This document shows positions 23,379 through 57,673 of a DNA stretch of 64,000 nt, one piece after another. Position 1 is the first letter of the stretch, and each line of letters starts with the position of its first letter. The DNA comes from an uncultured Methanoregulaceae archaeon (GTDB lineage Archaea; Halobacteriota; Methanomicrobia; Methanomicrobiales; Methanospirillaceae), in contig OY970343.1 in NCBI GenBank assembly GCA_963717525.1, positions 1 through 64,000 on the forward strand, in the 5' to 3' direction. The notes beneath the pieces are model-generated. The model saw only the letters and a program-made list of their open reading frames with translations. It had not been told where the DNA came from and did not search any database. A program made the position numbers and the translations under genes.

Positions 23379-23528
23379 CAAACTGATCCCAGATAGCAAC
23401 GCCACTAAAAGCAGAAATGTTATTCCATCCTCCATAAAGTCGGGTGATTGAAGCCGGATCCATCCCCGGGGTGCATCCCAAAAAGAGCTCCCCGACCGAC
23501 TATTTTCGATTTCCGGTAAACGGGGATT

Positions 23529-24563
23529 TTATTTCCCGGCAGGTTTCCGGTGGAGTGACTGATTTTCTTCGACGATGTAGTTGATCACGTTCTCGGAAAT
23601 ATCCGCGGCGTACTCTCCAGACCTGCGGATGCTCTCCGAGATGTAGCTGATCGAGATTGCCGCCATAGTCTCCTGCCTGAACGCCATGTTGCTGATATCG
23701 CCACAGATATGCTCCAGCGCCGAGACCGACTCGATGGTCTTGTGGGCCTCACGGATATCGGCATTGAAAAACGAGATAATACTCTTGTCAAAGATCTGCA
23801 TGGACAGGACGCTCGCCTTCTTTAACGCTGCCACGATCTTCGGGTCGAGGTCGGCATCCAGCACCGGCTGGGCATTCTCGGCAATCCGTACGGCGTGATC
23901 GCCGATTCGTTCGATGATCTTGCTGATCAGATGGTAGTACATGGCCATGCCGACCGAGACCTCCATCTTCCGGGAGAGGGAGGGGTTCTGCATGATCATG
24001 TTGGTCTGGCGGGCGATCAGCCAGTTGAGCCGGTCCGAGTCCATGTCCCGGTTGATCACGTCGGCGGCGAGGGTCTGGTTGTGCGTCTCGAGCGATGCGA
24101 TGGCATCCTCATGCATGTTCCTGACAATGACAAACATTCTCTTGATGGTGTTGTCAAACGGCATCTCGGCCGGGTTGAGGAGGTCTTTTATCAGGATGAG
24201 CGTATCGGTCTCCTCGACAACCTCCTGCCCGATGGTCATCTGGGTGAAGTCCCGGACAACGGTTCGGACAAACGGCGGAAACCGCTGCTTCGAACTGATA
24301 CGGATCGTCGTAAACCCGGTGATGTAAGTTCCGATCAGGATCCGGAAGAGAAATGAGGGGTCGGTGATATGCCCGATATCGACCTCTTTGACCCGCTGGA
24401 TTGGATCATCGGTGGTTTTTTTCGTGACGAGCAACGTGCCGTCAGGCTGTGCAATCATCCCGACGGGGTCATTCTTCTTGATTCGCAATTCCTGGACCCA
24501 GTCTTTGGGCAGCGTAACAACAAACGATGACCCCCCGGTCATCTGTACCCGGCGTATTTCCAT
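23529..24563 (-). CDS. phoU: Archaeal phosphate uptake regulator (AbrB-like DNA-binding domain plus two PhoU domains)
   Basis: RRVQMTGGSSFVVTLPKDW; ERIGDHA; RRSGEYAADISE. Confidence 0.93.
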   Translation of the reverse strand: MEIRRVQMTGGSSFVVTLPKDWVQELRIKKNDPVGMIAQPDGTLLVTKKTTDDPIQRVKEVDIGHITDPSFLFRILIGTYITGFTTIRISSKQRFPPFVRTVVRDFTQMTIGQEVVEETDTLILIKDLLNPAEMPFDNTIKRMFVIVRNMHEDAIASLETHNQTLAADVINRDMDSDRLNWLIARQTNMIMQNPSLSRKMEVSVGMAMYYHLISKIIERIGDHAVRIAENAQPVLDADLDPKIVAALKKASVLSMQIFDKSIISFFNADIREAHKTIESVSALEHICGDISNMAFRQETMAAISISYISESIRRSGEYAADISENVINYIVEENQSLHRKPAGK

Positions 24564-24724
24564 CTTGTTTTCACCTCACGAATAGAGTGATATGATAAAT
24601 ATACTTGACTCTGTTCTCTTTTTTCTTGTATATATATATGCATAGTTTATGTCGAAAAACTGTATATGAACTTGGGATAATATTCTGATTAAGTATCAAA
24701 AGCGGTGAATACACAGGAGCAGAT

Positions 24725-25225
24725 ATGAGAAGCGATACAGTGATTTTTATCTGCTCTTTCAATTCTGTCAGATCGCCCATCGCAGAAGGGTTTCTCCGGC
24801 AGAGAGAGCGGGGGCGGTATACAGTTTGTTCTGCTGGTATCGCACCAATACGGGTACGCCCCAGCGCTGTCAGGGTCATGCAGGAGATGAAGATCGATAT
24901 TTCGGGCCATATCCCTGCTTCGTTGTACCATTACCGGACCCAGGATTTCGATTACGTTGTTACGCTCTGCGATAATGTCCGCGCAGCAGCCGAAGAAGTG
25001 TTACCGGGCGGGGACAGGTTTTTTCACAGGAACTTTGTCAGCCCCCAGGAAATCGGGAAAACACCGGAGGAAACCCTCGCGGACTACCGGACATTGCGGG
25101 ATGAGATCGCGTTATGGTTGGACGAGATTTTTCCGGCAGCAACGCAAGATCCAGATAAAAACAACGGGAAAAAGAATATGGATTGCACCGCAACTCAGCA
25201 AGCGTCCGGGCAAGGACAATCTTAG
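24725..25225 (+). CDS. arsC: LMW-PTP fold arsenate reductase-like protein
   Basis: FICSFNSVRS P-loop, SAG, DYVVTLCD. Confidence 0.75.
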   Translation: MRSDTVIFICSFNSVRSPIAEGFLRQRERGRYTVCSAGIAPIRVRPSAVRVMQEMKIDISGHIPASLYHYRTQDFDYVVTLCDNVRAAAEEVLPGGDRFFHRNFVSPQEIGKTPEETLADYRTLRDEIALWLDEIFPAATQDPDKNNGKKNMDCTATQQASGQGQS

Positions 25226-27697: not shown

Positions 27698-29065
27698 ATG
27701 CAAACACCCGCCAAGGACACCCCGGTTCATAAAAAGATGGACGAGCTCCACGAGATTATCGAGCGGATATGGATCAAGTACAACCCACCGCGGGAACTTT
27801 TCACCATTGCCATTCCGGTCGCGGTTGCACTCCTGGTTGTGCTCGCTGCATTTTTAATGGGATATACAATCCATACAACGGAAAAGCAGCAGGCTACAAC
27901 CACCAGTGCCAAAGAACAGGCGCTGCAGGCATACCTTGCGCAGGTGAATGCCGAGAACGGCAATGCCACCGGAACAGTCGCTTCCGCTATACCATCAGCA
28001 CCTGCCGCACCGACCATGGGGCTTGACGAGGTGATGGTCTTTGCCCTGATCATAGCCATCCTCCCGTACTCCATTGACATAACGCTCCAGAAACGGTCGA
28101 CCCGGAAAAAAGAGGAACTCTATACCGAGTTCCTGTTTAAGCTCTCTGAGCTGATGCGGGGGGGGCTCGATCCCATCAAGGCAGTAAAAGAACTCTCCAA
28201 GACCGATCTTGGCGTTCTCACCCCACATATCCGCGTCGCAGCGACCTCCATGACATTCGGGAAGTCGTTTGAGGAAGCGATGAAAGCGATGTCTGCTTCA
28301 CTCCATTCGGAACTGATCACGCGGTACACCATGCTCGTCGTCCAGGCCTCGTATTCAGGGGGATCGGTTGCCGATCTTATCCTCAAGGCATCCGAGGACA
28401 TGCGGAGTATCATCTCGATCGAGCGGGAGAAAGAGGGGAATCTTCACCAGTACGTAATGATCTTCTACTTTGCCCAGGCAATCATCATTTTTATCGTCTA
28501 TATTCTGACAACAAGCCTCCTCCCGTTCGTCCAGCAGCTGGGCGCCACGCAGATGTTTGGCAAAACGGATATCGGCGATATCGATTTTGCCCGGGGATTC
28601 TTCCATATGATCATCCTCAACTCCATATTCGGGGGCCTGATCATCGGGAAGATCAGCGAAGGCGAGGCGCGGTACGGGCTCAAGCACGTGGTTGTGCTCG
28701 TGGCCGTAGGTTACATTGCGTGTGCCCTCTTCATCCTTCCTCCGCCGGTCACACAGATCGGGCCAAAGGTCAATATTACGGTGGTATCTGGAGATCAACA
28801 GGAAGGAGTTCAATCTTTGCCGCTCGTAAATCCAATCGTTTTCCAACTTACAGACACTGCCGGTAATCCCGTGAATAGTACTTCTGTTACATTCAACATA
28901 GTGCCGGGAGGGTTGGTAAATCCGGTTTCAGATATCTCGAATAATAATGGCCAAGTCCAGACGAAAGTAATCTTGGGAAATGTTTCGGGAACCTACTTTA
29001 TAACAGCAACGGCAAATGGGAACTCTGCAAAGGCGACTGCGAACGCAGCATCCGGAGGAGGATAA
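27698..29065 (+). CDS. Type IV pilus platform protein (T2SSF) with C-terminal Ig-like domain
   Basis: FLFKLSELMRGG, GLIIGKISEG..GLKH; C-terminal VVSGDQQ..TDTAGNPV..TATA beta domain. Confidence 0.9.
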   Translation: MQTPAKDTPVHKKMDELHEIIERIWIKYNPPRELFTIAIPVAVALLVVLAAFLMGYTIHTTEKQQATTTSAKEQALQAYLAQVNAENGNATGTVASAIPSAPAAPTMGLDEVMVFALIIAILPYSIDITLQKRSTRKKEELYTEFLFKLSELMRGGLDPIKAVKELSKTDLGVLTPHIRVAATSMTFGKSFEEAMKAMSASLHSELITRYTMLVVQASYSGGSVADLILKASEDMRSIISIEREKEGNLHQYVMIFYFAQAIIIFIVYILTTSLLPFVQQLGATQMFGKTDIGDIDFARGFFHMIILNSIFGGLIIGKISEGEARYGLKHVVVLVAVGYIACALFILPPPVTQIGPKVNITVVSGDQQEGVQSLPLVNPIVFQLTDTAGNPVNSTSVTFNIVPGGLVNPVSDISNNNGQVQTKVILGNVSGTYFITATANGNSAKATANAASGGG

Positions 29066-29068
29066 CCC

Positions 29069-29545
29069 TTGTTAAAACAGGCATATTATATTTTGTGTCT
29101 CCTTATTGGCATACTAGTATTTGTCAGTATTGCCGGCTGCGCAACATCCCTGCACCCACAGCTGAATTCGACGATTGAGAAATCTACGGATGCATTACCA
29201 GATCCTGAAACAGGTCTCCAGGAGTGGATGACTGCGATAAATGCCAAAAATATCAATCGTTTGTATACTCTTTCGCCTGATCAGATTCGGGAGCAGGTAA
29301 CCCTGGAACAATTCACCAAAGATAATACCGAAAATTACCTTCTCCAGCCAGGATATGTTTTTATTGGTTATACTATCCTTAACAAAACCGTTAATCAGAC
29401 AACAGCAACTATCACTGCACAATTGAATTTGCAGGTGTCAGCATCCCAGAATTTGAATCAAACGAAAGTATTTCCTGTAATCTATAAGTTTTTCCTGGTT
29501 TTTGAAGAGGGAGAATGGAAAATCTGGAACATTCCTCTTTCATAA
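29069..29545 (+). CDS. Putative lipoprotein (NTF2-like)
   Basis: IAGC lipobox-like; EEGEWKI ending; 3 bp after the platform gene. Confidence 0.65.
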   Translation: MLKQAYYILCLLIGILVFVSIAGCATSLHPQLNSTIEKSTDALPDPETGLQEWMTAINAKNINRLYTLSPDQIREQVTLEQFTKDNTENYLLQPGYVFIGYTILNKTVNQTTATITAQLNLQVSASQNLNQTKVFPVIYKFFLVFEEGEWKIWNIPLS

Positions 29546-33700: not shown

Positions 33701-34315
33701 TTATCCATGCCGCTCACGGGTATCGATCAGGAACCCCTCATCACCGATCGTGAAAGGCAGCATCTTTTCAGAAAGTAGGGTTCCCCGCATCTTGGGAATA
33801 TTGAGATAACGCTTGAGCTTGTCTCCCTCGGGAACGGTGGTGACCTGAATGACCCCGTCTGCCATCGCATGTAAAAGCGCCTCGTGCCGTTCGGGGAGAA
33901 CACCGCGATCCACAAGCAGGAGGAAAACGCGGCCGTTTTTTGCTGCAGTTATGATGCGGGAGATCCCCTCGCGGAGATCGGAGAGCGGTGTATCGAGGAA
34001 ATAGAGAGAAAACTGGTCAACGATCACCAGATCCCCGTTACCATGGAGGGTGAGAAGATCGAGGAGCGCTCCCGGGGTTGTCCCGTGTATCTCTTCAATA
34101 TGAAATCCCTTTGCGGGTAAAATTCTCAGGAGTTTCATCTCACTGCGGATATCGTCTGAGGGCCGGGGCGTGAGGTAGGAGACGTCCTTTCCGTCAGCTG
34201 CCGTTTCAGCGGCAATATACTGGGCATATACAGATTTGACAAGCCCCGTACCTTCTTCAATCAGGATCACGCTCTTTTCCGGAAAATTATCCATGCCATG
34301 AACGGGTGCCATCAC
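33701..34315 (-). CDS. Degenerate RecA/KaiC-superfamily (RAD55/ArlH-like) protein
   Basis: VILIEEGTGLVKS, VIVDQFS, MADGVI, IPKMRG, PFTI. Confidence 0.75.
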   Translation of the reverse strand: MMAPVHGMDNFPEKSVILIEEGTGLVKSVYAQYIAAETAADGKDVSYLTPRPSDDIRSEMKLLRILPAKGFHIEEIHGTTPGALLDLLTLHGNGDLVIVDQFSLYFLDTPLSDLREGISRIITAAKNGRVFLLLVDRGVLPERHEALLHAMADGVIQVTTVPEGDKLKRYLNIPKMRGTLLSEKMLPFTIGDEGFLIDTRERHG

Positions 34316-37447: not shown

Positions 37448-38260
37448 ATGCTGACCATCCTTTCCTGGAACGTCAATGGTCTCAGGGGGTGTTATGACCG
37501 GAAACATTTCCTGCCTGTCTTCAGGCACAACCCGGAGATCGTCTGCGTGCAGGAGACCAAAGCCCCGGAGGAGAAGCTCCCGGAGAAGGTGCGGAACCTG
37601 TATGGGTACCATACCTATTTTTCTGCGGTGCCGGCAGGGAGCACCACCGGGGTCGGGCTCTTTACCAGGCACCAGCCGCTTTCGGTACACTACGGTTTTG
37701 GCAACCCGGTTTTTGACAATAAGGGGCGGGTTCTTGTTGCCGATTATGGCAGGTTTGTGCTGCTCAATATCTCTTTCCCGCTTGGGATCAAGCCGATGGG
37801 AAACCTCGACAACAAGCTGAAATTTTACGATGCGTTTCTCCTGTACGTAAGGTCGCTCTGCGAAGAGGGCCGGGCGGTGATCATCTGTGGAGATTTCAAC
37901 GTGGCGCATACTGACCGGGATCTCTACAACCCACCCAAAAAGCCGGTCCGGCAGGTTGGTATCTCCCCGGAAGAGCGTGGCAAGATCGACCAGTTGGTCG
38001 GTCTGGGATTTACCGATACGTTCCGGATCTTTCACGAGGACGCCGGCCACTACACCCGGTGGCCGTTCCAGAACAACTCCCGTGAACGGAACTTCGGCTG
38101 GCGCATCGATTACTGTTTCGTCAGCAACGCGCTGCAGCCGTACGTGTCCGATGCGGCAATCCTGCCGGCAATAATGGGATCAGATCACTGCCCGGTGATG
38201 CTGGAGCTAAACCTGCCGGATACCGAGACATCCCCGCAACCAACGAAAGCATTGTCCTGA
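37448..38260 (+). CDS. xth: Exodeoxyribonuclease III family protein
   Basis: WNVNG, QETK, GDFNVAH, WRIDY, SDHCP. Confidence 0.92.
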   Translation: MLTILSWNVNGLRGCYDRKHFLPVFRHNPEIVCVQETKAPEEKLPEKVRNLYGYHTYFSAVPAGSTTGVGLFTRHQPLSVHYGFGNPVFDNKGRVLVADYGRFVLLNISFPLGIKPMGNLDNKLKFYDAFLLYVRSLCEEGRAVIICGDFNVAHTDRDLYNPPKKPVRQVGISPEERGKIDQLVGLGFTDTFRIFHEDAGHYTRWPFQNNSRERNFGWRIDYCFVSNALQPYVSDAAILPAIMGSDHCPVMLELNLPDTETSPQPTKALS

Positions 38261-38330
38261 TGCGGGACCAGGCAAGAGAGCCAATGAATAAATGACGCAC
38301 ATTAAGGCCGGCACACCAGAACCTCAGGGA

Positions 38331-38470
38331 AAGGGGGGGAGGGGGGTGTCTCCCACCCCCCTCCTCTTCTTTTTTTCAAGTGGGGGGTACCCTCCCCCTC
38401 ATATGCCGGATCAACAGGGGGTCACCCCCCTCCCCCCCCTGCCGGCCTGCATGGGGGATCATCCCCATGA
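38331..38470. repeat. Cluster of four G/C-run hairpins
   Basis: Perfect 11-bp stem GGAGGGGGGTG/CACCCCCCTCC (38338-38364) plus T-run; GGGGGTCACCCCC; CATGGGGGATCATCCCCATG. Confidence 0.65.
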
Positions 38471-38719
38471 CTTAAAGGAGGGACCCGAAAGCATCAGCTC
38501 TATCTGAGTGGTGGGCCTTGGGCCTCACGCGTCTGGAGGTATCGTAATACCAGTCACCGGGCCGGACAATCCAGCCCGGATGAGTATGATTAAAAATTAT
38601 CACTGTCCGCGATAACTCCATGGAATATTTCATAATAGGGAATATAGCTGATGAGGTGATTGCCAATAGAGTTTTTGAGATAATTCAATATAACAATGAA
38701 ACCAATATATACCTGAGTC

Positions 38720-39085
38720 TTGGATGTACCACCTATGGAAAAGTTGCGAACTTCGGAAATAATGTCGTTCTCCTTTGACAGGGCATATCAAGTCCTGAAG
38801 GAAAAGGGCCCTGCACGGGTTATTTCAGGCACCGGTGCTGAATACACGATCGAAGCATCTGCCATGACCAAAGGTAAGCTCCCCGCTGTACCTGTTATCC
38901 GGGTACAACCCAGGAGCGGGTTCAAGTATATCCGCTATACTTACATCCATGCGGATTGCTGGGGAAATGACGTGACGTGCCAAGGCAGCCGGGTCGAAGA
39001 CATATACCGGGGTAAAGACAACATCTACCGCTGGCTCGAAGAGAATACCCGGGACAATCCCGATACTGTTCCGAAAAAGAGATAA
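38720..39085 (+). CDS. Hypothetical protein
   Basis: ORF after an AT-rich promoter-like region. Confidence 0.6.
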   Translation: MDVPPMEKLRTSEIMSFSFDRAYQVLKEKGPARVISGTGAEYTIEASAMTKGKLPAVPVIRVQPRSGFKYIRYTYIHADCWGNDVTCQGSRVEDIYRGKDNIYRWLEENTRDNPDTVPKKR

Positions 39086-39237
39086 TCCTTTTCATAATTC
39101 CATTGCAAAAAGTTCAGTTCTCCCGGTTTTTCCAAAAAAAGCTCGTGAACATGTCTGAACCGGGGATATCAGTGAGACTGGGGTAACATGAAGACGGATG
39201 AAATGCACACACGAAGAATCCCTGTGAGGGAGCGAAC

Positions 39238-39495
39238 ATGACACATCTGCCGAATCGCATGACTGACGCGGCCTATGAAAAAGCCCTCCGGGAGGCAGGA
39301 AAAGAGGTGTCCGTTTTCAAAGCTGAGCTTCTTCGTGCACAATCCGCGTGGGACAACACCTCTGCCAGAAAATGCGGGGTCCGGGGATACCTCGCAACCT
39401 GGCTGCAGCTCCGGAAATCTGCATGGCAGCTGCGAAAGAAACAAGCCCATCTCAATTTCCTCCTTGAGTTCAAACGGGAGCGGAATAAGGACTGA
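39238..39495 (+). CDS. Small basic hypothetical protein
   Basis: GAGGGAG upstream; helical composition. Confidence 0.5.
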   Translation: MTHLPNRMTDAAYEKALREAGKEVSVFKAELLRAQSAWDNTSARKCGVRGYLATWLQLRKSAWQLRKKQAHLNFLLEFKRERNKD

Positions 39496-39670
39496 ACCTG
39501 GCAGCCTGAACTGTTCCATACATCCAGACTGGAAGACAAACGCAGCCCCCTCCTTCCCGGAACCGGCAAACCACAATGACCACCACACTACTGATAAAAA
39601 CCTTCTCCGGTCTGGAACGCAGCAGTTCCCTACCAAGCCGGGACAAAGATCGACGGAGACCAGTGCGTCC

Positions 39671-39740
39671 CTATACCCTATTGCGATCACTATATTGAAA
39701 AGCCTTATATCTATATCAAAAACGCTAAAAATATATAGTC
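39671..39740 (+). promoter_or_regulatory. pstS promoter with phased CTATA repeats and TATA-like element
   Basis: CTATA at 39671, 39690 and 39711; AAAATATATAG at ~39728-39738. Confidence 0.55.
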
Positions 39741-39866
39741 CTGGGTCGATACTCTGATTGGTGAATTGACATCTGTGGGGGATGAATGAACTTCACCGCA
39801 AGAACTCCGTGGCAAATCCATTAGTCTCTACAAATTTTTCAAAAATCCCATCCACGAACACCAAAG

Positions 39867-41015
39867 GTGAAAACAGCAATGTACGCAAACATGAAACGCA
39901 TGAACAATGAGATGGCAGTCTCACCGATTGTTGCGACGCTCGTCCTTATCGTCGTCGCCGTCATCGGTGCAGTTGCCGTAGGTACCATTATGGGTACCTT
40001 CTCAACCCAAGTATCGAAACAGGCATCCGCTTCTCAGGCCGCATCTGCATCATCAACTGAGATTCTCATCGCCGGCTCGACCACGCTCCTCCCGGCTGAG
40101 CTTAACCTCCAGACCGACTACCAGAAGGCCAACCCCGGCTACCAGCTGAACGTCCAGGGTGGCGGCTCGGGCGCCGGTGTGGCATCAGTAGCAGAGGGAA
40201 TCTCTGACATCGGTGCAGCATCCTCGGCAAGCACGATTACAGGCGCTCAGACGGCAAACCCGAACAACCCTGCCTACCAGAACCTCTACTACACCATGAT
40301 CGGTGGCCGTGGCGTCGTCTTCATTCAGGATGCAAGCATGATAGCAGACCCGAGTAATGTTGTTAGCACTGCAGACCTGAACGCTGCATACCTCGATGCA
40401 AGCGGCAACGGCGGCAAGACCACTGCTGTAACTACTAACCTCACCCACATCGGCACGACAATGGAACAGCGCGAAGCAGGTTCCGGCACGATGTCAACCG
40501 CATTCGGCTGGATTGGCGGCAGCGCAAAGGGTAACACATCCACCGGTTACAACAACCTTCCGACCCAGAACGGAAACGCAGCAATGCTCGCAGCAGTCCA
40601 GGCAGGAACCTCGACTGCCCCGGTCATCGGCTTCGTTGACGCAGGCTATGCATTCACCGGCTCAGTGACCAGCAACGTCACCGCATCGGGTATCTCGGTT
40701 ATGGGCGTTGTAGATGGAACTCAGACAGCAGCATATGTTCCGACCCACGCCAACATCAAGGCAGCACTCAAGGACTGGGTCAAGGGCAACTCTCAGGGAA
40801 CCAACTACCCCCAGAAGCTCACCGGCGGTCTCTACTGGATCACCGCGGGAACTGTACCCACCCAGTCGGTCAACGGTATTATCACAGCCCCAGGTACCAG
40901 CGCAGCCAGCTCAGTTGTTACCAACCTGATCACCTTCGCCCAGTCCCCGGGTGAGGCAACCGCGTTCAACAACGCCGGCATGTACTCGCTCTACGACTTT
41001 GCACCGACCAGCTAA
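39867..41015 (+). CDS. pstS: Phosphate-binding protein PstS with N-terminal type IV pilin (class III) signal
   Basis: NNEMA|VSPIVATLVLIVVAVIGAVAV; IAGSTT, GGGSGAG, DIGAAS, REAGSGT; precedes pstC-pstA; start may be ATG 39879 or 39891. Confidence 0.9.
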   Translation: MKTAMYANMKRMNNEMAVSPIVATLVLIVVAVIGAVAVGTIMGTFSTQVSKQASASQAASASSTEILIAGSTTLLPAELNLQTDYQKANPGYQLNVQGGGSGAGVASVAEGISDIGAASSASTITGAQTANPNNPAYQNLYYTMIGGRGVVFIQDASMIADPSNVVSTADLNAAYLDASGNGGKTTAVTTNLTHIGTTMEQREAGSGTMSTAFGWIGGSAKGNTSTGYNNLPTQNGNAAMLAAVQAGTSTAPVIGFVDAGYAFTGSVTSNVTASGISVMGVVDGTQTAAYVPTHANIKAALKDWVKGNSQGTNYPQKLTGGLYWITAGTVPTQSVNGIITAPGTSAASSVVTNLITFAQSPGEATAFNNAGMYSLYDFAPTS

Positions 41016-41034
41016 GCTAACAACTCAAACCACA

Positions 41035-41048
41035 TTTTTTTCTTTTTT
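41035..41048 (+). terminator. T-rich archaeal terminator between pstS and pstC
   Basis: TTTTTTTCTTTTTT right after the pstS stop. Confidence 0.6.
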
Positions 41049-41051
41049 ACA

Positions 41052-41972
41052 ATGAACGAAAAGACCGATCTCCACGAAGTACTCTTTCTTTCCTGTGCCG
41101 TGGTGACCGCGTTAAGTGTCATCGTAATCATCGGGTACATTATTTACGCTGCCTCGCCGGTTCTCGAGCGCGAGGGGCTCGGTTTTATCTTCGGATCGAC
41201 GTGGGACTATACATCTCACCAGTTTGGTATCTGGTCGTTTATCGTCGCAACTCTGATGGTAACCGTCGCCACTATTGTACTCGCTGTCCCGCTGGGCCTT
41301 GCAACCGCACTCTTTCTCTCGGAATGGGCCCCGCCGTGGCTCGACCAAGTGCTCAGTACGCTCATCGAACTGCTGGTGGGAATACCGTCTGTCGTATACG
41401 GTATCTTCGGCTTTTTTGTCCTGCGGAGTTATTTCAATGATTTCATCAACCCGTTCATAGGAAATACACTTGGTTTCATTCCCCTCTTCAGGTATGACAA
41501 TAACAACGGGATAGGCTTCCCGCTGGCAGCCACTGTCCTTGCCATCATGATCCTGCCGACCATCGTCGCCCTCTCGCGGGAGGCGATGCGCGGGGTGCCC
41601 GTGGAGCTGCGTGAAGGGTCGGCTGCGCTTGGATCGACGCAGTGGGAGACCATCCGGCACCTTGTTCTTCCGGCATCCCTCTCCGGGATCATCACCGGCC
41701 TGATCCTGGGCATCATGCGTGCGATGGGAGAGACCATGGCAGTCGCGATGCTTGTAGGTAATGTGGGCGCCACCCCGGCATCGTTTTTCAATCTGGGTGA
41801 ACCGATGACCGCCAAAATTCTCCTGGATATCGGATATTATATCGTAGAGCCCGAAGGCCGGAGCGCGCTCTTTGCCATCGGTGCTGTCCTTATGGTCATG
41901 GAGATAGGGTTTGTGATCGCGATCCATATCATCAGTGACCGGCTGAAAAAACGAATGGAAGGCGCCACGTGA
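41052..41972 (+). CDS. pstC: Phosphate ABC permease PstC
   Basis: ELLVGIPSVVYG, LAIMILPT, REGSAALG, RAMGETMAV. Confidence 0.95.
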   Translation: MNEKTDLHEVLFLSCAVVTALSVIVIIGYIIYAASPVLEREGLGFIFGSTWDYTSHQFGIWSFIVATLMVTVATIVLAVPLGLATALFLSEWAPPWLDQVLSTLIELLVGIPSVVYGIFGFFVLRSYFNDFINPFIGNTLGFIPLFRYDNNNGIGFPLAATVLAIMILPTIVALSREAMRGVPVELREGSAALGSTQWETIRHLVLPASLSGIITGLILGIMRAMGETMAVAMLVGNVGATPASFFNLGEPMTAKILLDIGYYIVEPEGRSALFAIGAVLMVMEIGFVIAIHIISDRLKKRMEGAT

Positions 41973-44640
41973 ACCTCCGGAATCTCAAAGGGACAATCAT
42001 GATGGCAATCTGCGGAGCTGCCGCGCTCTTTGCCGCAGCCATGCTTCTCTATATCCTCGTGGTTATCTTCCTGAAAGGAGTGGCATCCCTGAACCCGCAT
42101 TTCATCCTGTTCTCTGAGATCAATACCGGGTTGGGGCTCGGGACCGGGGTCGGGAACGCCATTGCCGGCACTATTCTTCTCGCGGTCATATCCACTATCC
42201 TTGCAATCCCCTTGGGAGTGGGGACTGCAATCTATCTCAGGAAATATGCTTCCGACAACCAGTTAACCCGGTTCCTGCGGCTGATGATCGAGGTTCTCTC
42301 AGGCACCCCTTCGATCGTACTGGGGATTTTCGGCGTCGCCGTCCTTGTTATCTATCTCAAGCCCATTACCGGGGGAGAATCCCTCATCGCAGGAGCCATT
42401 GCACTTGGCGTCCTGATCATCCCGGTGATCGAACGCTCAACAGAGGAGGCACTTTCGCGCGTGCCCTGCGAACTGGAAGAGGGCAGCTATGCACTCGGCG
42501 CAACCAAATGGCTAACAGTCCGGAATATCGTCATTCCTTATGCCCTTTCGGGTATCATCGTCGGGGCCATCCTTGGATTCGGCAGGGCTGCGGAAGAATC
42601 GGCCGTCGTTCTCCTGACCGCGGGATATTCCCAGTACATGCCGCAATTCAGGATCGCAGTCAACCCGAACTTTTTACTCGGGATTAAGATATATCCGCTC
42701 AATGATCTCGTCGGATCACTACCGGTATTCCTGTACACATCCTATGAAAATTCCAATGTCTTTCCCGTATCCTCCATTTTTGCTGCCGGCTTTATCCTCA
42801 TCGTCATCGTATTGTTCATCAATCTCTCGGCAAAGGCCATCCTTTTCTATGCCACAGCAAAGACACATGGGCATCAAGGTGACCTTCTGTCTTCGTTTTG
42901 CGGATCTATTTCAGACCGGTTCCTCGGGAAACAACCCAAAGCATTACCTTCATATTCCGATGTAATAGATCCTGCACCCCCGGATGAAAAAAACACGAAA
43001 AAAGAAGATCCTGTTAGTGCCTCAATGCCTCCTCAAATTCGCCCGGTAGACCTTTCGTGGATAGACACAGATCCGTTAATTGATGAACCATCTTCGGGGG
43101 AGACAGAAACTCCCGAGCCCGCCCCACCTGCTGCCGAACCCCCAAAACCAGCCCCCAGGCCAACAAGAATAACGATCCGCTCGGTTGGGACCGGCATTGT
43201 ACGGCTCATTAACGCAATCCGCGAAAAAGTTCGCATGGTGGTACATGACAACCTGCAAAAGAAAACACCTGTAGATGCAGCTAAGGTTCGTGGCACTGCG
43301 GATCGTGCTGGATCTCTTCGGAAGACACAGTCGTTCAGTCCCTGGATGATAATAGGCCCAGTCCGCTCCTTCCTTCTTACGTTTGCCCCATTCGCACTGG
43401 TCGCAGTAATCCTGCTGGTTCTCACCATCATGCTGCCCCCCCTCTCACCAGTTGGATCGAATGGGCCGGCCTGCTGACCGTTCCCATCATGGCCCTCATC
43501 CTGTGTTTGATCGGGACGGTAAGTGCCCTTTTTCTGGTGCGGAACAGTACGCTCTTCCTGCTTCGGCACCAGAAGGGCCGAATGGGGAACCGGCGTGCCG
43601 AATTCGCCGGGATCGCGGTGGGATTCTGCATGGTTCTTATCGGGGCATTCATCTTTTCCGCCCATATCTTTTCACCCGTTCCATCACTCCAGTCCCCGGG
43701 TTCAGAAGCACCCGCAGAAAATGGAATATTCAGTTACTTCACACCGTCAGGAAACGGTGGGATATCTGCAATCATGTCATTGATACAGGACAACAGCCTG
43801 TTAGGCTTCCTCCACGGATCAGGATCTGCAGCCGCCAACTCCACAGCCTCATCCAACCGGGGCGCACAACTGGCAGCGTTTCTGGCTTCAGAAGAAACAC
43901 CGGCCGAAGTAACCCCCCAGAGCACCCTGGCAGCACTCCAGCCCTCTCCTGCTCCGTCTTCCTCTGCCCAAGCCATCTCCTCAGTCCCTCCCTCCGTTCC
44001 GGTCAAAAACGCACTCGATCTCGGCGAGTCCTATTGGTACGGCGATAACAGCCGCCCATGCCTTGCCACCGTCTACAATGTAACCGTCCTCCCGTTCTAT
44101 TTCTACTGGGATATGGACTGGAACCGGTTCGTTCAGGTAACACCGGTTTCGAGCGGCGACACGTTCCTTGTTGTTTTCATCCGCATCGAAGACACCGGAA
44201 ATATGAGTGCCATCGTGCCGCCGGCAACCAGTTTTGTCGTCACCTATAACGGCCAAACCTATTCCAATGAGCCGTATTTCGATCAGTCAGTCCTTGACCC
44301 GGACGAAATTACTTATTATACCGCAAATTTCAACGCCCTGCCCTACCAGTGGATCCGGGAGATCGGGCAGCAGAAGCGGGATTATGCCTTCCTGACCGGC
44401 TACAATGTCTTCGGGCAGAACCAGACCGTGATCTCTAACTATACCAACAGCGCAAACGCCCCCCCGACACCGCCCGATACGAATGGCCAGGGGTATTTCA
44501 TCAAGCCCGGGCGCAGCAACGCCATCGACGGCTACCTTATCTACGAAGTCCCCGATGCTGTTGCAGCGGATCTCCGGGACACGTATGTCCAGGTCTCCTT
44601 CAACAGTTTCAGCGCGACGCAATGGAGGCTGGGAAAATGA
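41969..44640 (+). CDS. pstA: Phosphate ABC permease PstA with long C-terminal extension (one frameshift at ~43463)
   Basis: LSGTPSIVLG, EEGSYALGA, GRAAEESA; one extra G in AATGGGCCGGC joins ORFs 41969..43477 and 43489..44640. Confidence 0.8.
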
Positions 44641-44936
44641 GAATGCCGGGCTTTCTTATAAAAAGTTCACTGGTCCGCTGAAATGAGCTGGTGGCATCGA
44701 AATTGTGGATATGATGCAGCCTCTTGGACGAACCACCCGATGTAGAAACATAGAACTCTATATTCTCAATTCAAAAGATATATTTTAACCAGAAGCGTAA
44801 TCATTTGACAAATACCGGATTTTCAAAAACTGCATATGAGATCATGGGGGTTAACGTATGGCACATTGGGAACAGTATTTCACGCAAGGGATGGTTCCGA
44901 TTCCATGCGGGATGGTCTGTTTTTGAGGATCCACCA

Positions 44937-46984
44937 ATGAAAATAAAAATTCCCTTCGACAGGAAAAGGATCCGCTTACCCCGTATCAAAAAACAGGCCC
45001 GTATCCCTCTTGTTATCGGAGCGATTATCATCCTCTTCGCACTCGGTACGTATTTCCATCTCCTGCCGAGTATCGGGAGTCTTGCGCACCTGTTCGAACC
45101 CAAGGTTACCACAGATCCGCTTCAGTCCCTGGGAGATGCAGCTACGCCTCTCAGCGCAGACCTTGCAAAACCCCTTATCGCTGACTTTCTGGCTTCTCCC
45201 GGGTACCAGTCCGATCCGCTCTCCGTGCAGTTCTTCGATATGAGCCGGGTACTCCGGGGACATGGCACTGGGATTTTGGCGACAACGTAACTTCGGATCT
45301 CCAGAATCCGGTTCATGAGTACGCGGGCCCGGACATATATAATGCCACCCTGACCGTAAGCCGGGGAGATGGCACCCAAAAAACAATAACCGCATATGAT
45401 GTGCTGGATACCCGGCAGGCCGCTGAATCTCAGATGCTGGTCGATACCATCCGCACCGGAAGCATAAAAAAAGGTTCGTTTTTATCCTTTGTATCGACAG
45501 CCAGCAACTCTTCTGTGACCGTGAACGGTGCCCGGGTGCAGTTGCCGGCAGGATCGCTGGTGAAGATCCGTGCCAATGCGGACACCACCGGGACCCTCTC
45601 CCTGCGCGGCAGCAACATTCTGGGCTGTAGTCTTGCCGATGCTACCCTCTTTATGAACGGCACACAGGCTGCCCGGGGCATTTTTTCCGACTGCTTCATC
45701 CCGTCAGTACAGAGTTATCATGCAAACCTCACTTTTGCTATCGAGCCCACCTACGGGGAGGTCCGGGAGATCTTGGTAAACGGCAACGAAGTCCTTGCCG
45801 GGCCACAGAATTCCTACATCGTCGTTTCTGAGGATTCGCAAAATCCCGGAAAGGATCTGACAGTTGTTGCAGTCCCCGGATACTATGAGGGGAGTGCGTC
45901 CCGTTACTCCATATCGCCCGCATTGATCGCCAGTTTCGTCACTGCTTCTTCCTTAGAAGGCAGCGCCCCCCTCAATGTCTCGTTTCTGGATCGCTCGGCC
46001 GGCTCACCGGATTCATGGTTATGGGATTTCGGGGATGGCACCAGTTCCCAGGAACAGAATCCTACACACCTTTATGGCTCCCCGGGATCCTACGATGTCT
46101 CTCTGACCGTGAAAAACGAGGACCAGACCGATAGCACCGCACTCCAGAACGCGGTAATTGTCACGCCTCCCCGGGTCGTCGCTAACTTTACTGCTAGTCC
46201 GCTCACCGGCCCGGAGCCCCTCACCGTCAGGTTTACCGATCAATCCACCGGGTTCCCGACATCGTGGAACTGGACCTTCCAGGAAACCTCGTGGAATATG
46301 ACCTTCTATAACACCGGCAGCACTATTTATGACACCTCTACAAACCAGAATCCTACAGAAACCTTCACAGATCCTGGCACCTATGACGTCTGGTTGACGG
46401 TCAACAACGTCTACGGCAGCAGCGACATAATCAGGCCAGGGTATGTCGTCGTTACTTCACCCTACAATATTTCGACCGATGATATCCTTGTCAAGACCGG
46501 AAAACCCGGCTATATCGAACAGGATTCAAGCGTCCAGTTTATCGTGAGCAACACACCGGCGGCCATCACCATCAACGGGACCTACTATGATCTGCCGAAA
46601 GGTGCGGTTGTACGGATCGTAGCCGGGAGCGACCAGCAAGGCGATATCACCATCGACAGCAACCGGATCCTCAAATTTGCCTTCCCGGACATGGCAGTCT
46701 ACATGAACGGTAATCTCCTTGCCGGTGGGAGGATCGACAGCATCTATATCCCGTACATGATGCAGTTCCAGACCGGCCTGACCTATTATTTCTCGCCCAA
46801 TTCGGCCCAGACATATGAGGCCATCAATGGGCAGCAGTACCTTTCCGATTTGGACAATGCCTGGATCCGTATCTACGACCTAGGTATAAACAAACAGGGA
46901 ACACTCTCCCTGATTTCAGGCAAAAACACAACCTATATCGAAGGGGCCGATAACCAGACGGTTCAGGACTGGATTCTCCAGTGA
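44937..46984 (+). CDS. Membrane-anchored surface protein with three PKD domains (frameshifts ~45250-45380)
   Basis: N-terminal TM; WDFGD / QNP.H / YxVxLTV PKD motifs. Confidence 0.82.
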
Positions 46985-47987: not shown

Positions 47988-49319
47988 ATGTATAAACTGG
48001 GAACGGTTATCTGTCTCTTCGTCGTTATGCTGGTCTGGGCATGCGGCTGTACTTCCGTTCCCGCGTCAGGTACCGCACAGGCGGGACCGTCTGTGGCGAC
48101 ACCCACGCTGCCGGCGATGTATGTTGCCGGGGAAACGACACTCACGGCAGGGAGTGCCACGATCACATCGACGCCGATACCGGCGAACGCAACAGCCGCA
48201 AATATCGTTGGCGCACAAGTGAACACAACCCTCACGGAAGTTACGATAGCCTGCACGGGGCAAACCTGTACCAGCGGCACAACCAATAGTACCATATCCG
48301 GTTCCAGCACTACCACGGTGAGTGCCCCGGTGAGCGCCATTGCCGCCAACGTGACCATGGCATATGTCAAACAAAACCCGGACGTTGCAATCCAGTTTAC
48401 CGACTCCTCTTCAAACACCCCTCCGTATTCATGGATGTGGAGCTGGCGGCCGGCGGCAAACCTGACCTACGAGAGTGACCCGAGCATCGTTCTCGTCTTT
48501 AACCAGTATGGGAACTACATGGTAACCCGGAGTGTTTCAAACAGCGTGGGAACCTCAAGTTCATCAACAAATGTCTCCGTCTGTCCCCTTGTAGCCTCCT
48601 TTACCACAAACCAGACCACCGGCCCGGTACCACTCTCCGTCAGGTTCACCGACACTTCGACCGATCAGCCCGTCTCTTGGCTCTGGAACTTCGGCGATGG
48701 GAGTGCCTCGACCTTACAGAACCCGGTGCATACGTTTACCGTATCGGGTACGTTTACCGTGAGACTTGATGCAACAAACAGCCTGGGCTCCTGCTGGAAT
48801 ACGACCGGGATCTCGGTATCATCACTGGCAGCATCTTTTACCCAGAATCAGACTACCGGCCTTGTCCCGCTCGCTGTCCAGTTCACCGACACTTCGACCG
48901 ATCAGCCCGTCTCCTGGCTCTGGAACTTCGGTGATGGGAGTGCCTCGACCTTACAGAACCCGGTGCACACATATACGACTGCAGGTGTATACCTGGTCAA
49001 CCTCAGCGCATCCAACGGGTATGACGGCATGATGAGTGCGCAGCCAGTAAAGATCACGATCTGGTCCCTTCCCACCGCTTCTTTCACAGCAAGCCCGGTA
49101 ACCGGGATGCCGGGAACCTCCGTGCTTTTCAGTGACCAGAGCACCGGCTTTCCCTCCCCAGCATTCTGGTATTGGGACTTTGGCGACGGGTACACCAGCA
49201 GCCAGCAGAATCCCTCGCACCAGTATGTTAATGCCGGGACATACAATGTCAGCCATTCAGCAACAAATGCGCAGGGCATCACGTGGCTGAACAAGACCGC
49301 TTACATCACCATATCATGA
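47988..49319 (+). CDS. Exported protein with four PKD domains
   Basis: Signal ending ACGC; repeated W(N/D)FGDG..QNPxH; near-identical duplication at ~48645-48730 and ~48882-48967. Confidence 0.9.
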   Translation: MYKLGTVICLFVVMLVWACGCTSVPASGTAQAGPSVATPTLPAMYVAGETTLTAGSATITSTPIPANATAANIVGAQVNTTLTEVTIACTGQTCTSGTTNSTISGSSTTTVSAPVSAIAANVTMAYVKQNPDVAIQFTDSSSNTPPYSWMWSWRPAANLTYESDPSIVLVFNQYGNYMVTRSVSNSVGTSSSSTNVSVCPLVASFTTNQTTGPVPLSVRFTDTSTDQPVSWLWNFGDGSASTLQNPVHTFTVSGTFTVRLDATNSLGSCWNTTGISVSSLAASFTQNQTTGLVPLAVQFTDTSTDQPVSWLWNFGDGSASTLQNPVHTYTTAGVYLVNLSASNGYDGMMSAQPVKITIWSLPTASFTASPVTGMPGTSVLFSDQSTGFPSPAFWYWDFGDGYTSSQQNPSHQYVNAGTYNVSHSATNAQGITWLNKTAYITIS

Positions 49320-51490
49320 CACCCAAACCCTTGTCAGGCCGGCTTTCATCATTGTTCAGCACCGGAGGAGAGCCAGACGCTTCCCGACCGGACACTGATG
49401 CAGATGATACGCTATCCTCTGACGGCGTGCAAAAAGAAGATCACGGAACCGACGAACCTGACCTTGGAGACAAAGGGATTGGCCGCCAGCCGGAAAACCG
49501 GCGACCCGGTTCACGGATACAGAAGTTTTTCCTGTACTTCATTGAACCGGAACTGAAGCCGGAACAGCTACCTGATGTCTCCCGTACACAGGTAAAGAAA
49601 CCACGGGAAAAAAAGCCTTCCGTTCCTGTCAAAGAGAGGATCAGGGAACAGCTGGCCTCCCTGAGAAAATTGGGCCTGAAAATATCCCTCTATTTCATAG
49701 AACCCGTTGAAGAGGAGACAACGGGCATACAGGCCGAAGAGGTGCAGGCACTTCCGGAAACTGCAGCTGAAACCCTCCCTTCCATACCGGATCAGGCCAA
49801 CCTTGCGCTGTCTGTTACCGATGTGGTTCAGGCACCTGACAAACAGGTTCCCCCTCCCTCATTCATGCAGAGAATCCGGTCACTTTTGGCGTCCCCGGAA
49901 CAGAAGGAGATCCAGACGCTCGATTTCGATCCGGGTGTCCTTGACACCCCCTCCCTTGAAGGATCGCTGCGCGATGTCAATATCACCTACCTGATCGATC
50001 CCCCTTACCAATACGTCCATATCGAGTACAACAAAAAAGAGGGGTCTTTGATATATGATGTAGTCGAGCCGCAGCTCTCCGAGGATGAGAAGGTCGCTCT
50101 CGATATTATCGAGCGGGCCTTTGAGAAACTGGTGAGCACCAACCTCGAAATTATTGAAGGTGATCGGCGGACTGAATACCTCCGGGAACGGTTCTACTCA
50201 CTGGTCAACATCTTCGGGCTCAAACTCTCGGAACACCAGAAAGAGAGGATGTTTTTTACCCTCAAAAGGCAGTATCTCGGCTACAGCCGCATCGACACCC
50301 TGATGAAGGACAAGTATATCGAGGATATCAGCTGCAACGGTTCGGATATCTTCCTGTACGTCCAGCACCGTATCTATGGCTCAATCCGTACCAATGTGAA
50401 ATTCGGGGAGGTCGAGCTCAACAACTTCGTCCTGAAGCTGGCACAAGTCGGCGGCAGGCATATCTCGCTCCTCCAGCCCATCCGTGACGTTTCGCTGCCG
50501 GACGGGAGCCGGGGGAACCTGACCCTCGGCGGAGAGGTAACCAGAAAAGGATCGACATTTACCATCCGTAAATTCCGTGCAAACCCCATCTCGCCCATCG
50601 AAATGATGGACTACCACTCTGTCGATGCGATGGAGCTTGCATACCTATGGATCCTGATGGAATACAAGCGCTCGATCCTCGTCTCAGGGGGGACGGCGAC
50701 CGGGAAGACCACGTTTTTAAACGTGTTGTGCAGTTTCATTCCTCCCGAGTACAAGATCGTCTCCATCGAGGACACAGCAGAACTTAACCTAATGCACCCT
50801 AACTGGATTCAGTCCATCACCCGGGCCGGGTTCGGTAGTACCAGCGGTGGAGAGTCTGTATCTGGGTTGAGTGGTGTGTCGGCAAAAACCCCCGGGGATA
50901 TCTCGCTCTACGACCTGCTCGTCGCGGCACTGCGACAGCGCCCCGAGTTCATCATCGTAGGGGAGGTGCGGGGGAGCGAAGCGTTTACGCTCTTCCAGGC
51001 AATTGCCGTAGGGCATGCGGCTCTTGGGACTATCCACGCCGGTTCCATGGACGAGCTTCTCGCCCGCGTGGAGTCTAACCCTATGAATGTCCCACGAAGC
51101 CTCTTCTCCAACCTCGATGTGGTGATCTTTCCCATGCATATCAAGAAAGGGGAGCGGAGCATGCGGCGTTTGTCAAATATCATCGAGATGCTGGAACTCG
51201 ACCGGGATTCAGGAGATCTTATCACGAATACGGCTTTCAAATGGCTCCCTGATGTCGATGAGTTCCAGTTCCAGGGCCGGAGTTTCCTCTTTGACAAGAT
51301 CCGGGACACCCACGGGGTAAGTAAAGATCTCCTCAACCAGGAGCTCAAAGACCGGACAGCATTCCTGCGTGGCCTGCAGAAAGCAGGGATCCGGGAGTAT
51401 AATGCGGTGACTGAACAGATCCGGGCATATTACCGGGATAAACCGGCTGTGATGAAGCAGGTCGAGGGTTCATCGGAAATTGTAGGGTAG
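49316..51490 (+). CDS. Type II/IV secretion (pilus assembly) ATPase, ArlI/TadA-like
   Basis: GGTATGKT Walker A, SIEDTAEL, IIVGEVRG, GH...TIHA; ATGA overlap with the PKD gene. Confidence 0.95.
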   Translation: MTPKPLSGRLSSLFSTGGEPDASRPDTDADDTLSSDGVQKEDHGTDEPDLGDKGIGRQPENRRPGSRIQKFFLYFIEPELKPEQLPDVSRTQVKKPREKKPSVPVKERIREQLASLRKLGLKISLYFIEPVEEETTGIQAEEVQALPETAAETLPSIPDQANLALSVTDVVQAPDKQVPPPSFMQRIRSLLASPEQKEIQTLDFDPGVLDTPSLEGSLRDVNITYLIDPPYQYVHIEYNKKEGSLIYDVVEPQLSEDEKVALDIIERAFEKLVSTNLEIIEGDRRTEYLRERFYSLVNIFGLKLSEHQKERMFFTLKRQYLGYSRIDTLMKDKYIEDISCNGSDIFLYVQHRIYGSIRTNVKFGEVELNNFVLKLAQVGGRHISLLQPIRDVSLPDGSRGNLTLGGEVTRKGSTFTIRKFRANPISPIEMMDYHSVDAMELAYLWILMEYKRSILVSGGTATGKTTFLNVLCSFIPPEYKIVSIEDTAELNLMHPNWIQSITRAGFGSTSGGESVSGLSGVSAKTPGDISLYDLLVAALRQRPEFIIVGEVRGSEAFTLFQAIAVGHAALGTIHAGSMDELLARVESNPMNVPRSLFSNLDVVIFPMHIKKGERSMRRLSNIIEMLELDRDSGDLITNTAFKWLPDVDEFQFQGRSFLFDKIRDTHGVSKDLLNQELKDRTAFLRGLQKAGIREYNAVTEQIRAYYRDKPAVMKQVEGSSEIVG

Positions 51491-57601: not shown

Positions 57602-57673
57602 AGCCGCCGGAGGGACTTGAACCCTCGACCTGCTGATTACGAATCAGCCGCTATGCCGCTAAGCCACGGCGGC
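57602..57673 (-). tRNA. tRNA-Thr(CGT)
   Basis: GCCGCCG/CGGCGGC acceptor stem; GCTGA-TTCGTAA-TCAGC anticodon arm; GAGGG-TTCAAGT-CCCTC T arm; CCA not encoded. Confidence 0.97.

Follow-up and report, generated by a model that had tools for sequence, protein, structure and literature searches.

A PstS-family protein with a pilin-type head in a methanogen pilus gene cluster: a candidate phosphate 'bindosome' locus

The gene cluster described here combines genes of a Pst-type transporter with genes of archaeal type IV pilus assembly. It was analysed within a stretch of 64,000 nucleotides, hereafter the window, from an uncultured Methanoregulaceae archaeon (GenBank assembly GCA_963717525.1, contig OY970343.1, positions 1 to 64,000 of the forward strand). 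At its centre is a gene for a PstS-family binding protein that begins with a class III-type signal and a pilin-type hydrophobic head, hereafter the pilin-headed PstS. In our view, the best explanation of this cluster is a phosphate 'bindosome' locus in which the pilin-headed PstS would be placed on a dedicated pilus-like machine, a reading to which we assign a probability of about 0.6. An earlier note on this DNA had pointed out the pilin-like start of the protein, and that observation was confirmed as a whole. The same note proposed that the protein is displayed on a filament by means of the neighbouring pilus genes. The genetic part of this proposal gained strong support from gene order, co-occurrence and Pho regulators, and its physical part, the assembly itself, is something we infer.

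The open reading frame occupies 39867-41015 and opens, as listed, at a GTG (39867), which had originally been taken as the start codon. An AGGTGA Shine-Dalgarno sequence at 39865-70 overlaps this GTG, and the homologues begin at the Met of ATG 39879 or later. Based on the position of the Shine-Dalgarno sequence and the homologue starts, the start was corrected to ATG 39879, which is the likely beginning of a 378-residue product; residue numbers below count from this Met. The protein comprises a leader (residues 1-13), a hydrophobic segment (14-42), a Ser/Ala/Gln-rich linker (43-60) and a binding domain (61-378). Its closest database proteins share 89% identity and are labelled Methanoregula sp. 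The gene and its parts are as follows.

39879..41015, plus strand: pilin-headed PstS gene, with the class III-type signal at 39879-39917 and the predicted cleavage at 39917|39918
39918..40004, plus strand: hydrophobic head, followed by the Ser/Ala/Gln linker and by the PstS domain from about 40059

The leader has Lys/Arg in its n-region, then E-M-A|V-S-P, then about 29 hydrophobic residues (V-S-P-I-V-A-T-L...). Class III signal peptides of this kind allow assembly into type IV filaments. When the N-terminal 62 residues were searched against the PDB, the six best matches were all subunits of archaeal type IV pili or adhesion filaments (8fk7 'Flagellin', E = 0.0019; 8fj5 'Pilin_N domain-containing protein', 0.0072; 8rey, 0.071; then 3j1r, 9myg and 5kyh), each of these E-values being weak taken singly. 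The solved chains 8rey_M, 3j1r_A and 5kyh_A start exactly at the residue aligned with V14. Because three solved filament chains begin at this position, cleavage between A13 and V14, the site predicted earlier, is supported. The head thereby shows a short charged leader, a small residue at -1 and a hydrophobic stretch of at least 20 residues aligned to solved filament N-termini. The absence of a lipobox is a real contrast within the genome, whose other PstS carries the lipobox L-V-A-G-C.

The head is a family trait. It is present in 115 of the best 120 homologues, the other five being truncated or having a later start. Alanine precedes V-S-P at position -1 in 112/113 family members, position -3 is Asp or Glu in 106/113, and Lys or Arg stands upstream of the cleavage site in 109/115. 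Across the aligned family, all 59 members match the pilin model TIGR02537 at E<=1 (best 1.6e-7). Among 18 locus sequences (153 pairs), mean pairwise identity is 88% over residues 13-42 versus 36% over residues 61-378; seven of these 18 sequences came from a scan with the head pattern and are hence biased. In the 10 loci obtained by whole-protein search, which is unbiased toward the head, identity to the window's protein is 93-100% for the head and 26-71% for the domain. The binding domain is far less constrained than the head. A search for longer proteins with the N-terminal 62 residues gave 292 matches, and among the best 120 of these the head is specific to PstS-type proteins: 114 carry PF12849, six have no Pfam domain on record and none has another fold. 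In the whole genome, a regular expression for the head occurs once, the remaining matches being ordinary small pilins with a different head; therefore, class III export is not a general route for binding proteins in this organism.

The remainder of the protein matches PF12849 (PBP_like_2) with 30.5 bits against a cut-off of 27. A profile of the 59-member family retrieved 32 distinct PDB sequences at E<=1e-3 (best 2.3e-24), 31 of which are phosphate or related ATP-binding cassette (ABC) binding proteins. The AlphaFold model of the whole protein has a mean predicted local distance difference test score (pLDDT) of 89, above 92 in the binding domain, and a predicted template-modelling score of 0.81. 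Foldseek placed phosphate-binding proteins at all of ranks 1-40 (E down to 1.4e-15), with molybdate binders from rank 41. The window's protein contains all of the motifs G-S-T, G-G-S, D-I-G and R-x3-S-G-T. In the 59 family sequences these are either invariant or conserved to at least 90%, and we take them to correspond to the residues with which E. coli PstS contacts phosphate. The original description of a PstS domain with phosphate-site motifs thus holds, with the motifs intact and the fold that of phosphate-binding proteins. The binding domain belongs to the PstS family, and the conserved motifs suggest phosphate as its ligand. In one genome, to which a Methanocellaceae metagenome-assembled genome (MAG) contig (our loci L048 and L050) and L052 belong, the pilin-headed PstS paralogues near pilus genes number at least three; two of the paralogues are without the phosphate-site motifs and one is 692 residues long. 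This may mean that the head came to be reused with other ligands.

The pilin-headed pstS gene heads pstC and pstA, as the earlier note had it; both permease genes follow and score above their NCBIfam cut-offs. The features adjoining pstS on either side are listed here.

39659..39797, plus strand: conserved upstream block, candidate promoter and leader of pilin-pstS, near-invariant in five related genomes
41035..41048, plus strand: T-run (T7-C-T6) between the pstS stop and the pstC start, candidate partial terminator
41052..41972, plus strand: pstC permease gene (TIGR02138, 276.8 bits against a cut-off of 196), with the EAA coupling loop conserved relative to canonical PstC
41969..43477, plus strand: pstA permease gene (TIGR00974, 246.8 bits against a cut-off of 193), whose product extends at the C-terminus by about 200 further residues

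The T-run had been noticed before; it was confirmed at this position, and a run of at least six T is kept at the same place in 15/15 related loci examined. Oligo-T is a terminator signal in archaea, and partial termination after pstS, with an excess of pstS message, is therefore plausible. The upstream block of about 140 nucleotides holds TATA-like A/T boxes and a GGTGAA...TTCACC inverted repeat, and a long leader on the pilin-pstS transcript is likewise plausible. An Rfam search of 38000-41100 gave nothing near a gathering score and no family on the upstream block. In the spacer before this block, positions 38328-38444 form a long hairpin-forming stretch with sub-threshold Rfam matches to unrelated microRNA models (best 30 bits against 83-99); it is probably a strong inverted repeat. 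The C-terminal extension of PstA consists of a proline- and acid-rich disordered linker and an extra hydrophobic helix and was found only in the close relatives L029 and L040.

To place this cluster among its relatives, 201 Methanomicrobiales genomes were searched with the PstS and 11 loci were fetched and compared with the window's proteins by tblastn. A recurring order emerged: TadC1-TadC2-KaiC (opposite strand)-pstS (pilin)-pstC-pstA-ATPase-pilin (opposite strand), which is compact in L032, L033, L034, L035, L037 and L038. TadC and/or ATPase genes lie within 10 kb of pilin-pstS in 10 of the 11 loci, and the eleventh is a 6.2-kb contig with pilin-pstS at its end. In a second set of 14 loci found via head patterns, which includes Methanoculleus palmolei DSM 4273, Methanolinea, Methanocellaceae and other MAGs, pilus core genes are present in 13; three of these 14 loci look already counted in the first set, and the totals are not additive. 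One Methanocellaceae locus (L050) has its pilin-headed gene directly before ATPase-TadC-TadC-pilin, without pstCA. Two further contigs contain the head pattern. One is labelled Nitrososphaerales and has PhoU-AbrB, ATPase, two TadC and KaiC genes around it; the other, 164 kb long, bears the label of a bacterial candidate division and has no pilus genes within 10 kb. These two occurrences (the pair L044 and L053) reflect transfer or mis-binning.

The transporter and the machine are also inherited together. Orthologues of the locus ATPase (63-85% identity) were found in 13 other genomes of the 201, all other matches being at or below 44%, and the pilin-headed PstS, with a match that includes the head, in 12 other genomes. 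With the window's genome counted, the ATPase is present in 14 genomes, the pilin-headed PstS in 13 and both in 12, co-occurrence with a dedicated ATPase/platform set being a check that the earlier note had proposed; these counts come from related, non-independent genomes, and no statistic is given. In both genomes with the ATPase alone, the gene sits at a contig end, and in the one genome with PstS alone, the gene is at the end of the 6.2-kb contig. Holders of the pilin-headed PstS are spread over five of the six families sampled and are found in 3/15 other genomes of the genus; this patchy presence marks the cluster as an accessory module. In a phylum sample of 401 genomes, matches that include the head come from at least 26 genomes in seven families, counted among the 150 matches listed, with 175 weaker ones beyond.

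The core genes of the machine in the window, together with the conserved neighbour genes, are the following.

24725..25225, plus strand: LMWPc/Wzb-like low-molecular-weight phosphatase (Pfam LMWPc, 57 bits), a conserved locus member that stands beside the cluster in L045 and L046
26783..27691, plus strand: TadC/FlaJ-like platform protein 1 (Pfam T2SSF, 58 bits), with 59-87% identical orthologues in related clusters
27698..29065, plus strand: TadC/FlaJ-like platform protein 2 with a C-terminal immunoglobulin (Ig)-like domain (Pfam T2SSF, 52 bits; Big_1 27.5 bits, under cut-off), with orthologues in related clusters
33701..34315, minus strand: KaiC/ArlH-like ATPase (Pfam KaiC ATPase, 40 bits), whose orthologues adjoin TadC2 in related loci
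49283..51490, plus strand: FlaI/PilB-type secretion ATPase (Pfam T2SSE 109 bits, PilB3_C 35 bits), with a charged N-terminal extension of about 200 residues
51769..52809, minus strand: large locus pilin (TIGR02537, 26.3 bits against a cut-off of 20), whose C-terminus looks frame-shifted in the assembly

The large locus pilin carries the class III motif D-Q-G|V-S-V, and its head is conserved across 10 loci. Its model has a 46-residue N-terminal helix (residues 8-53) followed by beta-sandwich domains, and its best geometric match is the Halobacterium archaellum subunit 9eq7_L (template-modelling score 0.66), Foldseek otherwise returning mostly generic tandem Ig-like matches with scores of about 0.2. 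The modelled locus pilin has full pilin architecture, unlike the PstS with its short helix and flexible linker. Its alignment to nine relatives is lost after about residue 305, and it is without their last Ig-like domain (51769-51900).

The cluster of the window is devoid of pstB. PF12849 finds two genes in the genome, the pilin-headed PstS and a canonical PstS, the latter in a lipobox pstS-pstC-pstA-pstB-phoU operon 190 kb away (G000:C1:225937-230394) that contains the only PstB of the genome over the family cut-off (226600-227340). PstS, PstC and PstA of the window are 27%, 39% and 44% identical to their canonical counterparts, and the EAA loops that dock the ABC ATPase are conserved in the permeases of both loci. 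No PstB was found inside the related clusters, except that in L045 and L046 a canonical pstB-phoU-LMWPc run lies next to the pilus genes in the same orientation. Of 10 related genomes, eight encode a single PstB over cut-off and a ninth encodes part of one at the end of a contig; all of these lie outside the cluster. The first start codon of the pilus ATPase overlaps the end of pstA by 8-59 nucleotides in 6/12 loci, the other six having gaps of 31-390 nucleotides, and the pilus ATPase gene occupies the usual slot of pstB in the compact relatives.

Phosphate regulators are found at both pst loci of the genome. Two features of the window are concerned.

23529..24563, minus strand: PhoU-domain regulator with an AbrB/MazE-type DNA-binding N-terminus (Pfam PhoU 79 bits, MazE_antitoxin 40 bits)
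24564..24681, no strand assigned: second copy of the intergenic (promoter) region that separates the divergent canonical pstS and phoU-abrB genes, lying in the window upstream of LMWPc-TadC

Both belong to a DNA duplication of 1160 bp with 93% identity between window positions 23522-24681 and G000:C1:230339-231495, one copy per pst locus. The duplicated segment consists of the PhoU-AbrB gene and about 120 bp, which in the canonical locus make up all of the divergent pstS promoter region. The two PhoU-AbrB proteins are 96.8% identical, the second (G000:C1:230457-231491) being encoded beside the canonical pst operon, and the duplication is recent. Judged from this arrangement, the duplicated promoter region may put the platform genes under Pho control. 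The upstream region of pilin-pstS itself has no word of 9 nucleotides or more in common with the canonical pstS promoter, and an operator shared by these two genes was rejected on this ground. A single A24 prepilin peptidase gene is present at G000:C1:232950-234139, where the assembly divides it into two reading frames. The contigs of 4/4 sequencing runs contain one extra base at about 233889-233891, where the frames meet; therefore, the peptidase gene is unbroken in the population, and its frameshift comes from an indel error of the assembly and does not mark a pseudogene. Similar indels may lie behind other frame breaks in the genome, and the 87% completeness of the single 2.29-Mb contig may in part be due to them.

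Together, these findings would fit the following course of events. A PstS-family phosphate-binding protein would be made as a prepilin, and its charged leader would be removed by the A24 prepilin peptidase at A|VSP. The near-invariant head would then be handled by a dedicated machine of two TadC proteins, the FlaI/PilB-type ATPase and the KaiC-like ATPase. Along with the large locus pilin, the PstS domain on its flexible linker of about 20 residues would be placed in a pilus-like or pseudopilus-like surface assembly, from which captured phosphate might be handed to the cluster's own PstC-PstA permease. This permease, with intact coupling loops and no PstB of its own, would presumably draw its energy from the one PstB that the canonical operon encodes. 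The PhoU-AbrB regulator and the duplicated pst promoter region make control of expression by phosphate probable, and the T-run could yield the excess of pstS message. A bolder extension, which we regard as speculative and rather improbable, would unite PstC-PstA, the two TadC proteins and the FlaI-type ATPase in a single supercomplex of the membrane. A short, dynamic PstS pseudopilus would extend through the S-layer and retract onto the permease, so that phosphate 'fishing' would be driven by the pilus ATPase and PstB would be borrowed in trans for translocation only.

A number of observations weigh against a phosphate bindosome. The Pfam scan suggested in the earlier note was split: PF12849 is over its cut-off, as given above, and Pilin_N reaches 16.7 bits, under its cut-off of 25.2. 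TIGR02537 gives the pilin-headed PstS of the window 12 bits, under the cut-off of 20. Position -2 of the head is uncharged, being Met here and in 72/113 relatives, and the head departs from the FlaFind-type rule, which asks for a charged residue at -2; its charge sits at -3. In the AlphaFold model the head consists only of a 24-residue helix (16-39, pLDDT 51-71) followed by a disordered linker, and the globular domain has no long pilin helix packing against it. The core cluster has no small major pilin gene. The NCBIfam PstS models TIGR02136 and TIGR00975 are far under their cut-offs (42.7 against 206.6 and 29.4 against 205 bits); therefore, the protein belongs to a divergent subfamily and its ligand could differ. 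The loss of the phosphate-site motifs in two Methanocellaceae paralogues counts on the same side. One related genome (G167, 97% complete) yielded no PstB at E<=1e-70. Lastly, a published table of pilus loci carries the FlaFind-positive mark on one of its four Pst rows (Makarova et al. 2016, Table S4, PMC4858521).

A short helix with a disordered linker would fit a plain membrane tether equally well. The head, cleaved or not, could be the membrane anchor of a second high-affinity PstS that belongs to no filament. Under phosphate starvation the machine would then build its adhesion pilus from the large pilin, and a shared regulon would account for the genes being neighbours. The full pilin architecture of the locus pilin alone and the phosphate regulators inside the locus speak for such a tether, which we consider possible but unlikely. 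A plain anchor would not be expected to keep 88% identity while its domain drifts to 36%, the head resembles filament subunits down to the V-S-P start, the PstS occurs with one ATPase lineage in 12/13 genomes, and in L050 the pilin-headed gene directly precedes the pilus genes without pstCA. An ordinary Sec signal peptide, cut by signal peptidase I after Ala-Ser-Ala to leave a soluble PstS under the S-layer, would account for the K/R n-region, the hydrophobic core and the succession of A-x-A-like sites, and some orthologues are marked 'SIGNAL' in the 2016 table (PMC4858521). The near-invariant hydrophobic stretch of about 29 residues, the match of the N-terminus to pilin and archaellin models and to solved filaments, and the linkage to pilus machinery make this very unlikely.

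The function of the cluster, too, can be read differently. Without pstB, PstS-PstCA might not serve uptake but act as a phosphate sensor controlling pilus assembly, or the PstS domain might be an adhesin for phosphate-bearing surfaces or bind another oxyanion. The KaiC-like ATPase, low-molecular-weight phosphatase and PhoU regulator as conserved neighbours, the low equivalog scores and the motif loss in some paralogues are all compatible with a function of this type. We nevertheless find it improbable, since PstC and PstA are over their equivalog cut-offs and keep the EAA loops for an ABC ATPase, the phosphate-site motifs are intact in the window's protein, and a PstB over cut-off is encoded elsewhere in the window's genome and in 8/10 related genomes, a ninth having the partial copy. 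The position of the pilus ATPase gene in the slot of pstB, overlapping the pstA stop codon in 6/12 loci, could also mean that this ATPase replaced PstB and itself energises PstCA. The protein is a FlaI/VirB11-type hexameric ATPase and not an ABC nucleotide-binding domain, its TadC platform partners are always present, and the coupling loops of PstCA look canonical, which leaves this idea with hardly any credibility.

A phosphate bindosome would resemble several known systems without belonging to any of them. In the bindosome of Saccharolobus/Sulfolobus solfataricus, the BasEF ATPase and platform and the pilin-like BasABC proteins act with proteins that bind sugars, namely GlcS, AraS and TreS (PMC13705601). 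The two systems have in common that the binding-protein gene stands beside its permease genes. They differ in ligand class, phosphate here and sugars there, and in the machine, which is euryarchaeal and FlaI/PilB3-like here and not BasE/BasF. Against the NCBIfam models, the locus proteins reach 194 bits for bindosome_BasE (cut-off 1000) and 30 for BasF (cut-off 1300), scores outside the Bas family, and the ATPase scores higher on the FlaI model (374, cut-off 550). In addition, the machine and transporter genes form one cluster here with one binding protein, whereas a separate Bas locus serves several in Sulfolobus; there is one large pilin in place of a BasABC-like trio, and the cluster is without an ABC ATPase gene. 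By analogy, the system would work like a bindosome and would not be a Bas family member.

The general idea has been put forward before. A recent survey counted 4397 candidate class III binding proteins in archaea and hypothesised that such proteins 'functionalise' archaeal type IV filament machines (PLoS Genet 2026, PMC13705601), a class to which a pilin-headed PstS would belong. According to the same source, class III binding proteins often co-localise with ABC transporters rather than with filament clusters, and their link to a specific filament locus needs validation, a reviewer having found it unclear. The words phosphate, PstS, PBP and PF12849 are absent from its main text, its preprint and six of its seven supplements (S9 Fig and other figures aside).

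The locus itself is also on record. Table S4 of Makarova et al. 2016 (PMC4858521) lists for Methanosarcina acetivorans a pstS-pstC-pstA run beside FlaI-TadC-TadC-RAD55/KaiC-pilin (arCOG09549), followed by prepilin peptidase-Wzb-PhoU. Its PstS is marked FlaFind-positive, its pilin is labelled clade_2, and by the published coordinates its ATPase overlaps pstA by 8 nucleotides. Pst genes beside pilus loci are listed there for three more methanogens. The main text of that paper has no occurrence of phosphate, ABC, transporter or PhoU, and our full-text literature searches found no discussion of a pilin-headed PstS. As far as the sources cover it, the general idea (2026) and the locus (in a 2016 supplementary table) are in print, and a discussion of the locus was not found.

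The machine resembles the euryarchaeal 'clade 2 / system 2' type IV pili (such as the PilB3-PilC3 adhesion pili of Haloferax volcanii; PMC4858521) in its two TadC proteins, its PilB3_C-bearing FlaI-like ATPase and its KaiC/RAD55-like neighbour, and it differs from them in the pstS-pstC-pstA genes embedded in the operon. With canonical PstSCAB-PhoU it shares the PstS fold and site motifs, PstC and PstA over equivalog cut-offs and the EAA loops; it departs from that system in having a pilin head for a lipobox and in that pstA is followed not by pstB and phoU but, in compact relatives, by the pilus ATPase. In Pseudomonas aeruginosa, PstS-rich surface appendages are induced by phosphate limitation and depend on Hxc type II secretion (PMC2242829). 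These appendages are tied to a machine of the type IV filament superfamily, the analogy being functional only: the system is bacterial, and its PstS is a secreted substrate without a pilin head and with a reported role in adhesion.

The bindosome idea has so far rested on the sugar-binding proteins of one crenarchaeal order, and its recent extension to other archaea came without a demonstrated link between binding protein and machine. Here the operon supplies this link: across several methanogen families, a binding protein whose ligand class is known is inherited along with a permease and an assembly machine of its own. The same layout in the genetically tractable M. acetivorans (2016 table, PMC4858521) and in cultured Methanoculleus makes the hypothesis directly testable. 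If true, it would say what one of the many functionally unassigned type IV pilus loci of archaea is for, and it may explain phosphate scavenging through the S-layer by methanogens of phosphate-poor peat and soil.

The clusters of the window and of the same genus contain insertions, namely a response regulator, kinases, an exonuclease, a membrane protein without a family and a pair of PKD proteins. The remaining features of the region are these.

29069..29545, plus strand: small lipobox-type protein (tblastn matches in L030, L036, L041 and L045; weak NTF2-like Pfam matches only), which comes after TadC2 in some relatives
43489..44640, plus strand: membrane-anchored protein of 383 residues without a family, between pstA and the ATPase gene in Methanoregula-type clusters
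44805..46984, plus strand: PKD-domain surface protein (Pfam PKD) in two reading frames (44805-45290 and 45401-46984) with an apparent frameshift
47988..49319, plus strand: second PKD-domain surface lipoprotein (Pfam PKD_4, 153 bits), with a lipobox

The 383-residue protein has no Pfam or NCBIfam match and has orthologues in L029, L030, L036, L040 and L045; both this protein and the PstA extension are absent from the compact clusters of other families. Relatives suggest that the first PKD protein is one continuous gene. Within the second PKD gene, two tandem repeats of 166 nucleotides (48574-48976, 83% identical) correspond to repeated PKD domains. Beyond the locus pilin, a tyrosine integrase gene (56282-57505, minus strand) adjoins tRNA-Thr(CGT) (57602-57673, minus strand), and a search at seed 14 found no direct repeat involving this tRNA that could be an attachment repeat. 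Since the order of the pst-pilus cluster is common to the same-genus genome of L036, we dropped the idea that the cluster belongs to an integrase element. The DNA at 52-56 kb is low in G+C (0.43-0.48), which suggests a small integrated element beside the pilus cluster.

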